Shown piece by piece: positions 19,118 through 21,366 of a stretch of 64,000 nt of DNA. The notes under the pieces are model-generated. The model was not told the DNA's origin. It saw only the letters and a program-made list of their open reading frames with translations, and searched no databases. A program made the position numbers and the translations under genes. The stretch comes from Escherichia phage vB_Eco_J-01: sequence record PQ438393.1, one strand, 5' to 3'. The number at the start of each line of letters is the position of its first letter. Position 1 is the stretch's first letter.

Positions 19118-19476
19118 TGTGCGCTACTAATCAACATGATATTTGTTACCAACCTCTTACTTGGATTGGTGAGGATCACTATGCTCAACGTGTTATAGTA
19201 TGCGCTGCGAATAAGTATATTCTCAATAATGGCAAAGAGTTAATTATTCCTTGTGTTAGGCATGCAAATCCTGTACTATCTGCACAACTTAATGTTTTAA
19301 AAGATGCAGGATTGATTGATAAACTGTTTTGCTTACCTGATAATCAAGGGTTTATTGATCAGTATTATAACTGGTGGAGTCGCAAAGATGCTTATATCAT
19401 TGCAGATAACGCCAAACAAATTAACTACGAAAGAAATGGTCACGACAGTGAACTATTCAGCGAGGGATTATACTAA
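19114..19476 (+). CDS. hypothetical protein
   Basis: 120-aa track ORF. Confidence 0.5.
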   Translation: MMCATNQHDICYQPLTWIGEDHYAQRVIVCAANKYILNNGKELIIPCVRHANPVLSAQLNVLKDAGLIDKLFCLPDNQGFIDQYYNWWSRKDAYIIADNAKQINYERNGHDSELFSEGLY

Positions 19477-20027
19477 TGTTTATTACAAGCGATTTGCATT
19501 TTATGCACAAACGTATCCGAGAGTTTGCTCCTGAATATCGCCCGTGGGAAGATATGGAGCATATGACAGAAGCACTGATCGAAGCATGGAATAAATGTGC
19601 CACAACACCAGGAGTAAAGATGTACCATCTTGGGGACTTCTGTTTCGGGACTGAAGAAGATACCCGTAAGATTGCTTCCCGTCTCCAAGGGGATATTACT
19701 TACTGTGTTGGGAACCATGATTATAGTAAACACAGAAAAGTGCTTGCAGAGTATGGAGAAGTTGTGTATTATGACGAAGTGAAATATCAGAAGCTGTTCT
19801 TCGTCTTAAGTCATTACCCTATGGCTGCCTGGAATAAACAAGGGCGTGGATCAATCATGCTACACGGACACTCTCACGGATCATTCCCTGATCATTTGTA
19901 TGGGAAAATGTTGGATGTTGGTTGGGATGCACACGGGAAAATCTTGCATTTTGACGAAATCATCTCTATTATGGATAAGCGTGATATTATTGTTGTAGAT
20001 CATCATAAAATAATCAAAGGAGATTAA
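19476..20027 (+). CDS. calcineurin-like metallophosphoesterase (RNA end-healing phosphatase candidate)
   Basis: motifs DLHFMH, GDFCFG, GNHD, HGHSH; immediately upstream of RNA ligase and polynucleotide kinase. Confidence 0.7.
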   Translation: MFITSDLHFMHKRIREFAPEYRPWEDMEHMTEALIEAWNKCATTPGVKMYHLGDFCFGTEEDTRKIASRLQGDITYCVGNHDYSKHRKVLAEYGEVVYYDEVKYQKLFFVLSHYPMAAWNKQGRGSIMLHGHSHGSFPDHLYGKMLDVGWDAHGKILHFDEIISIMDKRDIIVVDHHKIIKGD

Positions 20028-20028
20028 G

Positions 20029-20961
20029 GTGGCTAATTTCAATTGTGATGACCTGATTGCAAAAGGTTTAGTACATAAAAAAGAAGTTAAATCTGGAGAG
20101 TATGCTGGTCTTGCTGTACTTAAATACAAAAACAATGTATTCTGGGATAACTTGTGGAACGTTGACAAACGACTTTTAGATTGTCGTGGGTTGGTTGTTG
20201 ACTCAGAAGACAATGTTGTTATTTGGCCTTTTACTAAAATCTTTAATCGTTTTGAAAATGGTACAGATCTTCCAGCAGACGAAATTGTAGATGCTGTCCG
20301 TAAAGTAAACGGTTTTATGGCATCTGTAGGTGTGTACAAAGGGAAACTTGTTGTATCAACAACAGGGAGCCTAGAATCAGATTTCGCAATTATGGCAAAG
20401 AACCGTATTATTTCCGAGTGTGACGACATAGAGTATTTCATTAAGTGGACAGAAAGTGCAAAAGCAACTTTCCTTTTTGAAATCTGTGATCCTTCTGACC
20501 CACATATTGTCGAAGAAGAACCAGGCGCATACTTAATTGGAGCAAGAATTCAAAATCTTGATGGGACAAGTTTCATGTTACCTGAAGGTGTTCTTGATGG
20601 GATTGCATCTGTTACAAAATTTAAACGTCCTGAAGTTTATCCGATGATTAAATTTTCAGATGTTGTTGAAATGTCTAAACATTGTAAACACGAAGGGTTT
20701 GTTGTTCGTGAAACAAACTACCCGTTTAACTTACTGTTAAAGATTAAGTCACCATACTATCTTGCTAAAAAATTCCTTATGCGTGGTGGCAATAAGAAGT
20801 GGGATATGATTTGGGACAACCCAAACAATGCTAAACAAATTGTTGACGAAGAATATTATACTTTGCTAGAATGGCTTCGAAACAACTTTACTAAGACTCA
20901 ATGGGCTGCTTTAGATCCACAAGAGCGACGTAAAGAAATAGAAAACTTCTTTGGAGGCTAA
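20029..20961 (+). CDS. RNA ligase, T4 Rnl1-like
   Basis: 310 aa; segments resembling T4 Rnl1 (LDCRGLVV, VRKVNG lysine motif, STTGSLESDFAIMAKN). Confidence 0.65.
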   Translation: MANFNCDDLIAKGLVHKKEVKSGEYAGLAVLKYKNNVFWDNLWNVDKRLLDCRGLVVDSEDNVVIWPFTKIFNRFENGTDLPADEIVDAVRKVNGFMASVGVYKGKLVVSTTGSLESDFAIMAKNRIISECDDIEYFIKWTESAKATFLFEICDPSDPHIVEEEPGAYLIGARIQNLDGTSFMLPEGVLDGIASVTKFKRPEVYPMIKFSDVVEMSKHCKHEGFVVRETNYPFNLLLKIKSPYYLAKKFLMRGGNKKWDMIWDNPNNAKQIVDEEYYTLLEWLRNNFTKTQWAALDPQERRKEIENFFGG

Positions 20962-21366
20962 ATGAAACAACTTATCATCTTACGTGGTGTTTCAGGTGCA
21001 GGTAAATCTACAGTAGCAGAAATTATTTCTGAAGGTTATTGGCCTATCTGTGAGGCAGATCAATATCATTACACAGAAAGTGGTGTTTACGATTGGAAGC
21101 CAGAGAATGTAGGTAAAGCACACGCATGGTGTCAGAGTATTGTTCGTGATGCTATGGCATCTAATATTAAAAAGATTATTGTCTCTAACACTTCAACCAC
21201 AGAGAAAGAACTTAAACCTTATTTAACTCTTGCTGAAGAGTTTGGTTATCAAGTTATCTCTTTAGTTGTTGAAAATAGGCACGGTAACGACTCAATTCAT
21301 GAGGTTCCACAACATATTCGTGATCAGCAAGAGAAACGTCTTCGCAGTTCACTTAAGCTACAATAA
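20962..21366 (+). CDS. polynucleotide 5'-kinase (T4 Pnk kinase-domain-like)
   Basis: 134 aa; P-loop LRGVSGAGKST and overall similarity to the T4 Pnk kinase domain; no HAD phosphatase domain. Confidence 0.65.
   Translation: MKQLIILRGVSGAGKSTVAEIISEGYWPICEADQYHYTESGVYDWKPENVGKAHAWCQSIVRDAMASNIKKIIVSNTSTTEKELKPYLTLAEEFGYQVISLVVENRHGNDSIHEVPQHIRDQQEKRLRSSLKLQ

Follow-up and report, generated by a model that had tools for sequence, protein, structure and literature searches.

A putative RNA end-healing and sealing cassette split over three small proteins in Escherichia phage vB_Eco_J-01 and related phages

Described RNA repair systems and the layout of the cassette

Bacteria can halt phages by cleaving tRNA or other RNA, as do PrrC, RloC, Cas13a, PARIS and retron-associated nucleases. 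Among phage answers to such cleavage, the T4 pair of Pnkp and Rnl1, which counters the PrrC anticodon nuclease, is to our knowledge the only heal-and-seal pathway characterised and the only one examined thoroughly; of its two enzymes, Pnkp is bifunctional and joins a kinase to a HAD phosphatase. Here we analysed a 64,000-nucleotide stretch of Escherichia phage vB_Eco_J-01 (GenBank:PQ438393.1; the whole of this stretch is referred to as the window), in which three consecutive genes at 19476-21366 encode a calcineurin-type metallophosphoesterase (MPE), an ATP-dependent RNA ligase and a P-loop kinase. Judged by homology and linkage, this cassette is likely to be a phage pathway for healing and sealing RNA ends whose activities are distributed among three small proteins, and in its predicted activities it is a split, differently composed form of the known heal-and-seal RNA repair pathway. 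The cassette consists of the following features:

19476..20027, plus strand: MPE, calcineurin-type metallophosphoesterase, 183 amino acids (aa), ATG start (Pfam Metallophos, phrog_547)
20016..20022, plus strand: Shine-Dalgarno sequence AAAGGAG for the ligase, within the 3′ end of the MPE gene, 6 nt before the GTG at 20029, read from the sequence
20029..20961, plus strand: Rnl1/Trl1-clade ATP-dependent RNA ligase, 310 aa, GTG start (PF09511, phrog_562)
20953..20957, plus strand: Shine-Dalgarno sequence GGAGG for the kinase, within the 3′ end of the ligase gene, 4 nt before the ATG at 20962, read from the sequence
20962..21366, plus strand: minimal P-loop polynucleotide 5′-kinase-like protein, 134 aa, ATG start (AAA_33, phrog_505)

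With the T4 pair, the cassette would share the logic of 3′ phosphate removal, 5′ phosphorylation and ATP-dependent sealing, as predicted here from sequence. It differs from T4 in that 1) three separate proteins encoded side by side stand in place of two enzymes, 2) the phosphatase is a metallophosphoesterase and not a DxDxT/HAD domain, 3) the kinase is a 134-aa core without an equivalent of T4 R38, and 4) the ligase has a C-terminal helical region that appears shorter and a Thr (T112) at the position of T4 Rnl1 K119, an essential residue.

In CthPnkp of Clostridium thermocellum the three kinds of domain are likewise present, and 3′ healing is carried out by a metallophosphoesterase (PMC2190708). 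However, CthPnkp is one polypeptide that works with the Hen1 methyltransferase, whereas the cassette has separate genes; the CthPnkp phosphatase is lambda-phosphatase-like (PMC2190708), and no match of the MPE profile in PDB was named as a phosphatase of that type; and the cassette ligase is closest to the Rnl1/Trl1 folds. No methyltransferase domain (Hen1) was found in the neighbouring genes from 16991 to 24143, nor was a conserved methyltransferase seen among the neighbour clusters of related loci that were examined. In the Capnocytophaga Pnkp1-Rnl-Hen1 system the ligase is likewise a polypeptide separate from the healing enzyme, and, of all solved structures, that of its Pnkp1 kinase domain is matched best by the cassette kinase family (4xrp, 1.2e-8). 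That system is a heterohexamer with Hen1 and a kinase-phosphatase fusion (PMC4411300); in contrast, the cassette encodes separate proteins and no Hen1. Trl1 of fungi and plants (LIG-KIN-CPD) likewise combines healing and sealing activities, and its ligase domain (6n0t, 9qw7, 8rbj, 6n67) is matched by the cassette ligase fold as well as T4 Rnl1 is; but the cyclic phosphodiesterase of Trl1 is a 2H enzyme, and sealing by Trl1 requires a 2′-phosphate at the junction, which is later removed by Tpt1 with NAD+. Genes for 2H and Tpt1 proteins were not found here.

Two genomic studies come close to the present locus. In a survey of jumbo phages, Iyer et al. 2021 (PMC7824862) predicted that polynucleotide kinases and phosphoesterases are the partners of phage ATP-dependent RNA ligases, the phosphatase being supplied by calcineurin-like domains in a few jumbo phages and, as proposed there, usually by HAD enzymes; the module of three genes dealt with here, its distribution and its gene orders are not described there. 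For the Pseudomonas Pakpunavirus Adele (PMC12846349, 2025), a 5′-kinase without a 3′-phosphatase domain and RNA ligases were proposed to restore cleaved tRNA, but an MPE was not tied to the pathway and the proposal is made at the level of annotation, without experiment.

The region 18500-21700 of the window was 97-99% identical to more than 50 phi92-like coliphage genomes (Justusliebigvirus, Stephanstirmvirinae; e.g. muut, Nernie, JohannJBalmer and phi92), which indicates that the trio are conserved genes and no chance open reading frames (ORFs), and the gene coordinates of phage Nernie corresponded one-to-one with those of the window across the cassette region. Up to 16581, the minus strand carries structural genes, a tRNA cluster and genes for NAMPT and PRPP synthetase; a dense run of plus-strand genes spans 16991-24143, with the cassette ~2.5 to 4.4 kb into it. 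The preliminary description of this DNA had placed three consecutive, translationally coupled genes at 19476-21366. All ORFs were found exactly as placed, and the coupling was confirmed by a TAATG at 19474-19478 in which the stop codon of the preceding gene overlaps the MPE start, by the single base between the MPE stop codon (TAA, 20025-20027) and the ligase GTG at 20029, by the ligase stop codon (TAA, 20959-20961) directly abutting the kinase ATG at 20962, and by the two internal Shine-Dalgarno sequences. Given this coupling and their position in one run, the MPE, ligase and kinase are presumably made together. Such tight packing is not peculiar to the trio, as all genes in 16991-24143 are equally dense; thus, coupling alone defines no three-gene unit, whereas conservation does. 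Neither promoter-like sites (29 versus 26.1 expected from shuffles) nor terminator-like sites (5 versus 4.1) were enriched in 16400-24300, and these scans are therefore uninformative on the transcription unit. A MazG-like gene (23421-24143) is immediately followed, at 24150-24175, by a hairpin that is rich in G+C and has T runs on both strands, possibly a bidirectional terminator closing the plus-strand run that bears the cassette.

Family assignment of the three proteins

The preliminary description had named the three products as a calcineurin-like metallophosphoesterase, an RNA ligase with T4 Rnl1-like segments and a kinase resembling the kinase domain of T4 Pnk, and had called for sensitive profile searches of each. 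All three assignments were upheld by these searches. When the single sequences were searched against PDB, the ligase gave nothing informative and the kinase gave weak matches, so that family profiles were needed. Profile hidden Markov models of the three families found no second copy of the MPE, ligase or kinase in the window, and scans with PADLOC and NCBIfam gave no meaningful matches.

The ligase matched Pfam RNA_lig_T4_1 (PF09511) at 3e-14 (53.8 bits versus a cut-off of 28.3) and phrog_562 at 2e-68, and 2571 relatives of it were found among 5.8 billion proteins. Alignment with 25 relatives sharing 49-85% identity revealed that R53, K70, K92, G95, E151, E222, G223, K238 and K240 were invariant and F72 nearly so. 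These residues include motif I (K92-V-N-G95, KxNG), with K92 as the predicted lysine nucleophile, motif III (E151, FE), motif IV (E222-G223, EGF) and motif V (K238/K240, KIKS). The absence of an adenylylation lysine had been named beforehand as grounds for rejecting the proposed repair cassette; since K92 is present and invariant in all 25 homologs, these grounds fall away. The family profile matched T4 Rnl1 (2c5u, 9do4) at 2e-10, pairing KVNG with KEDG, FE with FE, EGF with EGY and KIKS with KIKS. The upstream contact residues R53, K70 and F72 pair with their T4 counterparts as well. Ten of the eleven residues essential in T4 Rnl1 by the mutational literature are identical in the ligase, the exception being T112 mentioned above, and KxNG is the Trl1 form of motif I, KxDG being that of T4. 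An AlphaFold2 model of high reported confidence (pLDDT 91, pTM 0.86) gave T4 Rnl1 (5tt6, 2c5u, 9do4) and fungal Trl1-LIG as the top Foldseek matches (E values of 1e-13 to 1e-11), with TM scores of 0.61-0.66 (global) to T4 Rnl1 and 0.62-0.67 to Trl1-LIG; archaeal Rnl3, T4 Rnl2 and DNA ligases ranked behind them. By its sequence motifs and modelled fold, the ligase belongs to the Rnl1 clade, and we propose it as the putative sealing enzyme of the cassette.

For the kinase, Pfam gave only the generic AAA_33 (7e-10, 39.8 bits versus a cut-off of 27), and PHROG gave phrog_2071 ("ATPase", 9e-58) and phrog_505 ("polynucleotide kinase", 6e-9). In an alignment of 27 homologs from related loci (29-74% identity), R8, G9, G12, G14, K15, T17, D33, Y87, H113, V115 and P116 were invariant, the P-loop GxxGxGK[ST] corresponding to G9-V-S-G12-A-G14-K15-S16-T17. 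Searched against PDB, the family profile matched Pnkp1 best, as given above, followed by T4 Pnk (3e-8 to 8e-8), with CthPnk (4gp7/4jst, ~3e-6) and mammalian PNKP (4e-5) lower; PSTK (2.7e-7) and P-loop-only entries were interspersed among these matches, which are led by kinases from established RNA repair systems. Profile residues 1-129 align with residues 1-145 of T4 Pnk, over the whole of its kinase domain (E value of 3e-8), and in the profile alignment to 1ly1/1ltq, D33 pairs with T4 D35, the general base that activates the 5′-OH. T4 R126 has no counterpart and pairs with N109; the kinase family has instead the invariant R8 and an H113-x-V-P motif. No HAD (DxDxT) 3′-phosphatase domain was found in the kinase, which ends at residue 134, and the stand-alone MPE is the sole phosphoesterase of the module, in agreement with the earlier statement that, unlike in T4, the phosphatase is separate. 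Judged by these alignments, the predicted kinase is a pared-down member of the polynucleotide kinase lineage and no close ortholog of T4 Pnk, and we propose it as the putative 5′ end-healing enzyme.

The MPE matched Pfam Metallophos above its cut-off (1.7e-5, 25.8 bits versus 21.5) and phrog_547 at 5e-55. Across 31 homologs, H8, G53-D54, G79-N80-H81, H113, G131-H132 and H134 were invariant and D6 nearly so, such that the metal-binding motifs DxH, GD, GNH[DE], H and GHxH are complete and form the full dinuclear-metal set. Among all PDB sequences, the closest solved structure to the family profile was the uncharacterised Aquifex protein aq_1665 (1xm7, 8e-23); the other four matches, described as phosphohydrolase, Metallophos domain protein and COG0622 predicted phosphoesterase, were weak. 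The MPE is proposed as a candidate 3′ end-healing enzyme acting as a 2′,3′-cyclic phosphodiesterase or phosphomonoesterase. As it has no clear solved relative but aq_1665, we infer its chemistry on RNA ends from context only, and 3′ healing is the least secure step of the model. A second, unrelated metallophosphoesterase was seen at 46054-46800 (plus strand), 25 kb from the cassette; it is annotated in Nernie as a NinI/lambda-phosphatase-like Ser/Thr phosphatase.

Linkage of the three genes and their neighbours in other phages

A pattern-plus-tblastn scan of IMG/VR with the ligase alignment yielded 68 loci (ligase identity of 30-96%), which, together with two GenBank phi92-like regions, formed a set of 70 loci (numbered with L) in which the window proteins were compared with all ORFs by phmmer. 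Within 6 kb of the ligase, the MPE was present in 65 of the 70 loci and the kinase in 63. After ligases were collapsed at 70% identity, 41 lineages were obtained; all three genes lay within 6 kb in 32 of them, and some of the incomplete loci may be cut by contig ends. The predominant gene orders were Pnk-Rnl-MPE (19 lineages) and MPE-Rnl-Pnk (8 lineages), and the rarer ones comprised forms containing a cREC gene (described below), one Rnl-MPE-Pnk, and one in which the MPE and Pnk are encoded on the other strand. The MPE gene of many lineages touches or overlaps that of the ligase, which it may precede or follow; in several lineages it lies 0.4 to 4.3 kb away, whereas the kinase usually abuts the ligase.

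Among cultured phages in GenBank, 606 records contained the ligase and 615 the kinase, the counts by genus being almost the same for both (ligase/kinase: Escherichia 198/197, Pseudomonas 175/173, Klebsiella 36/36, Acinetobacter 24/24, Campylobacter-labelled 23/23, Salmonella 14/14 and Aeromonas 13/13). A natural fusion was found at 5404-7447 of a 242,859-bp jumbo-phage contig (L065, IMGVR_UViG_3300017565_000017), where a 480-aa ORF joins a T4-Pnk-like kinase domain (AAA_33 at 2e-21; hhalign 96% to the kinase family) to a ligase part that is 37% identical to the window ligase, and the end of this ORF is overlapped by an MPE gene of the same family. In addition, the window ligase and kinase match different parts of the fused phrog_8238. 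The Pakpunaviruses carry homologs of all three proteins: in the cultured Pseudomonas phage Zigelbrucke, the MPE, ligase and kinase lie within 2.9 kb, in the order HD phosphohydrolase, hypothetical protein, MPE, three small genes, ligase, kinase, PRPP synthetase, hypothetical protein and NAMPT. The trio is thus a conserved module in viral contigs, and its linkage across very diverged phages, together with the kinase-ligase fusion, is independent support for a joint function. As to the records themselves, four that are named Campylobacter phage with Campylobacter jejuni as host (GenBank:MG065639, MG065645, MG065656 and MG065689) were 97.7% identical to the coliphage region, and their host label is doubtful.

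The genes that surround the cassette were examined in the same loci. The features referred to below are:

18617..18958, plus strand: cREC (cyclic-phosphate processing receiver) domain protein, 113 aa, GTG start (PF20274)
22108-23223, plus strand: ATP-dependent DNA ligase (PF01068 at 6e-11, phrog_114 at 2e-75), 0.75 kb downstream of the kinase
10391..13136, minus strand: phage tRNA cluster, 16 genes, outside the operon (ARAGORN)
L009 7942-8718 and L017 7145-7906: examples of Sir2-family genes in related loci

The cREC gene of phi92-like phages, which had been overlooked in the preliminary description, precedes the MPE by 0.5 kb. Its product matched PF20274 (cREC_REC) at 3e-14 (53.9 bits versus a cut-off of 27), and D8-D9, D49-N50-D51, N86-P87 and K92 are invariant. 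It adjoins the ligase or the cassette in 13 loci, in four different arrangements: besides its upstream position in phi92-like phages, it stands between the ligase and kinase in six other loci of enterobacterial phages (L005-L009 and L014), is the next gene behind the ligase in L017 and immediately precedes the MPE in L043. It was found in 352 phage records, mostly enterobacterial, in most of which it is labelled hypothetical, and in records of Klebsiella and Salmonella phages it overlaps with what is annotated as RNA ligase. The cREC is a divergent receiver domain, operonically linked to RNA ligases and predicted to process 2′,3′-cyclic phosphates or cyclic ADP-ribose (Iyer et al. 2021, PMC7824862). 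It is probably a lineage-restricted accessory of the cassette.

Two other small genes precede the MPE. At 19117-19476 (plus strand) there is a T4 Arn.3 homolog (phrog_839, PF26092), found in 1504 phage records, with an AlphaFold2 model of pLDDT 90.7 that has no fold relative in PDB; its invariant motifs are PCVRH, QGFID and a C-terminal LFSEGLY, and the label "anti-restriction nuclease" that it bears in some records appears unfounded. At 17807-18148 (plus strand) a 113-aa protein with basic, Lys-rich N- and C-termini and no Pfam match is encoded; its homologs occur shortly upstream of the MPE in 15 loci (L001-L014 and L029), in several of them directly before it, and are labelled "transposase-like" in one record.

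The large tRNA cluster that the preliminary description had noted a few kb away was confirmed as 16 genes called by ARAGORN, situated 6.3 to 9.1 kb upstream of the cassette and including Lys(UUU), Tyr and Asn. The cluster would provide replacement tRNAs. Rfam gave 14 tRNA matches, corresponding to 13 of the 16 genes plus one at 12808-12886 (minus strand) that was missed by ARAGORN and is listed as tRNA-OTHER in Nernie. Three ARAGORN genes on the minus strand, 10707-10782 (Met), 12652-12741 (Ser-tga) and 13061-13136 (Met), fell below the Rfam gathering score; these three and 12808-12886 may be unusual or degenerate tRNAs. Among the 41 diverse loci scanned, tRNA genes were present within 6 kb of the ligase in 17, and the following were found within 4 kb of it: a NAMPT-family gene (15 of the 41 ligase lineages), a DNA ligase (12) and PRPP synthetase (11). 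In the window, the NAMPT and PRPP synthetase genes occupy 13883-16581 (minus strand), beside the RNA repair genes; in Zigelbrucke, NAD+ salvage genes directly abut the kinase (L075, 1-2097). A Sir2-family gene (PF02146, 4e-22) directly follows the kinase or the cREC in L005-L014 and L017, and no Sir2 gene was found next to the cassette in the window. These recurrent neighbours, counted without phylogenetic correction, suggest a translation- and NAD-protecting neighbourhood. NAD+ salvage genes are regarded as counters to host NAD+ restriction (PMC7824862), and by the same uncorrected counts they may, together with the RNA repair genes, form a counter-defence neighbourhood.

Proposed pathway, alternative readings and significance

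The cassette most likely mends RNA, probably tRNA, that has been cut by bacterial defence nucleases. A host defence ribonuclease would cut an essential RNA, most plausibly in the anticodon loop of a tRNA, to leave a 2′,3′-cyclic phosphate and a 5′-OH. The MPE, possibly aided by cREC, would then open and remove the cyclic or terminal phosphate to give a 3′-OH, and the P-loop kinase would move a nucleoside triphosphate (NTP) phosphate onto the 5′-OH, with D33 as general base and K15/S16/T17 of the P-loop holding the NTP. Finally, the ligase, adenylylated on K92, would transfer AMP to the 5′-phosphate and join the ends. Together with the phage's own tRNA genes, the cassette could in this way keep translation going in hosts that cut tRNA. 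As far as sequence goes, the interpretation given in the preliminary description is supported, with PrrC/RloC-type nucleases as the putative opponents.

Several observations weigh against this repair pathway. The lambda phosphatase/CthPnkp-type enzymes have demonstrated 2′,3′-cyclic phosphodiesterase activity (PMC2190708), and no lambda-type or CthPnkp phosphatase was named among the matches of the MPE profile to all PDB sequences; by this comparison the MPE is placed outside that clade. The MPE family, with 1249 phage records, is about twice as common as the ligase and extends to phages of Staphylococcus, Enterococcus, Bacillus and Streptomyces. We considered that in such Gram-positive phages the MPE might sit beside other RNA ligases, but the three records inspected, of phages of Staphylococcus, Bacillus and Streptomyces, show no annotated RNA ligase or kinase near it, and in Bacillus phage Riley it sits between helicase and exonuclease genes; this weakens a family-wide role on RNA and indicates that RNA repair is not the dedicated task of the whole family. 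In the kinase, a counterpart of T4 R38 is absent, R38 being in an insertion relative to the family profile, and R106, which pairs with T4 R122, is missing in distant family members. Residues 242-310 of the ligase are modelled as six short helices (~65 aa); the C-terminal domain implicated in the tRNA specificity of T4 Rnl1 is ~120 aa, so that the ligase region is about half of that and a tRNA specificity of the ligase is at most putative. Finally, literature searches on the trio in phi92-like, rV5-like and Pakpunavirus phages returned annotation-level statements and no biochemical or genetic study.

Some of these points would also fit a narrower role, in which only the ligase and kinase form a repair pair and the MPE and cREC act on nucleotides or on immune signals, either cyclic-nucleotide or ADP-ribose-derived, as clustered counter-defence genes. 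The abundance of the MPE, its occurrence alone in Gram-positive phages and its position outside the clade with known RNA 3′ end-healing are as expected of such a role, and so are the NAD+ salvage and Sir2 genes as common neighbours and the distance of the MPE from the ligase in several lineages where the kinase usually abuts it; phage calcineurin-like phosphodiesterases and cREC have, moreover, been proposed to target cyclic signals (PMC7824862). However, an ATP-dependent ligase requires a 3′-OH, and the MPE, with cREC where present, is the module's sole candidate for supplying it, as no other member could make it from a cyclic-phosphate end. In many lineages, too, the MPE and ligase genes adjoin or overlap, in either order, and in L065 the MPE follows the kinase-ligase fusion. 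We regard a repair pair without the MPE as unlikely, although with some claim to attention.

There is also a slight chance that the cassette serves the phage's own RNA metabolism, by rejoining RNAs that are cut when its tRNA or mRNA transcripts are processed, or by limiting collateral damage from phage-induced decay of host RNA. The phage has at least 16 tRNAs, tRNA genes recur near the ligase at the frequency given above, and the sequence names no host nuclease as opponent. But T4 Pnkp and Rnl1 are dispensable except on hosts carrying the PrrC anticodon nuclease; for the tRNA genes found here, neither ARAGORN nor Rfam reported an intron-like insertion; and the cassette is often located beside NAD+ salvage genes, the counters to NAD+ restriction mentioned above (PMC7824862).

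A variant of the repair pathway that resembles Trl1 was considered as well. It would be a four-part system of cREC, MPE, Rnl and Pnk, in which the phosphoesterase opens the cyclic phosphate to a 2′-phosphate, the KxNG ligase seals the ends bearing it, and the 2′-phosphate is then removed in an NAD+-dependent manner. Such a system would explain the recurrent cREC, which is tied in the literature to NAD+/ADP-ribose cyclic-phosphate chemistry, as well as the Sir2 gene directly downstream in rV5-like relatives and the NAD+ salvage neighbours in Escherichia and Pseudomonas phages. However, no Tpt1 or 2H gene was found, no Sir2 gene adjoins the cassette of the window, and no result calls for this variant, which we regard as improbable.

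It appears quite improbable that the module cleans 5′-OH/3′-phosphate DNA breaks for the ATP-dependent DNA ligase nearby. This would accord with the proximity of that gene here and in 12 of the 41 lineages, with the position of the Riley MPE among helicase and exonuclease genes, and with a weak, sub-threshold match of the MPE to PdeM, a ligase-associated DNA damage response phosphoesterase (E value of 0.004, 16.5 bits versus a cut-off of 150); T4 Pnk acts on DNA ends too. Yet the kinase is strictly co-distributed with the Rnl1-type RNA ligase and not with the DNA ligase, the natural fusion joins it to an RNA ligase, and the best fold matches of the cassette ligase are RNA-specific enzymes. Last, that the ligase is chiefly a tail-fibre attachment factor, like the second, non-catalytic activity of T4 gp63, is hardly credible: the name "RNA ligase and tail fiber protein attachment catalyst" of phrog_562, copied in many records, is inherited from T4 gp63, while the catalytic residues are invariant, the gene is locked to those of the kinase and phosphoesterase, and it lies among nucleotide-metabolism genes with the structural genes on the other strand.

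Repair of RNA was to be expected from T4 biology and is already present in annotations, which, like the placement of the MPE outside the lambda-phosphatase/CthPnkp clade, had escaped the preliminary description. In GenBank the products are labelled RNA ligase ("RNA ligase/RNA repair" in one record), phosphoesterase or putative phosphoesterase, and either polynucleotide kinase (BASEL phage JohannJBalmer) or, in most records, ATPase; the MPE is not linked to RNA repair in most of them. What is new here is the conservation of the module, the co-distribution of ligase and kinase, the kinase-ligase fusion and the association with cREC.

The proposed repair pathway would extend the textbook pathway and does not overturn current understanding. 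It points to a differently built repair set in ~600 sequenced phages, made up of a separate metallophosphoesterase, a minimal kinase, a short Rnl1-type ligase and often cREC; the phages bearing the module infect Escherichia, Pseudomonas, Vibrio, Klebsiella and Acinetobacter and include phage-therapy groups. This breadth, the uncharacterised MPE and cREC, and the attention now given to tRNA-targeting defences make the module a sensible experimental target. If the pathway proves true, it would foretell the tRNA-targeting defences that phages with the module are able to evade, would be a source of small stand-alone RNA end-healing enzymes, and would give a function to the uncharacterised aq_1665-type phosphoesterase family.

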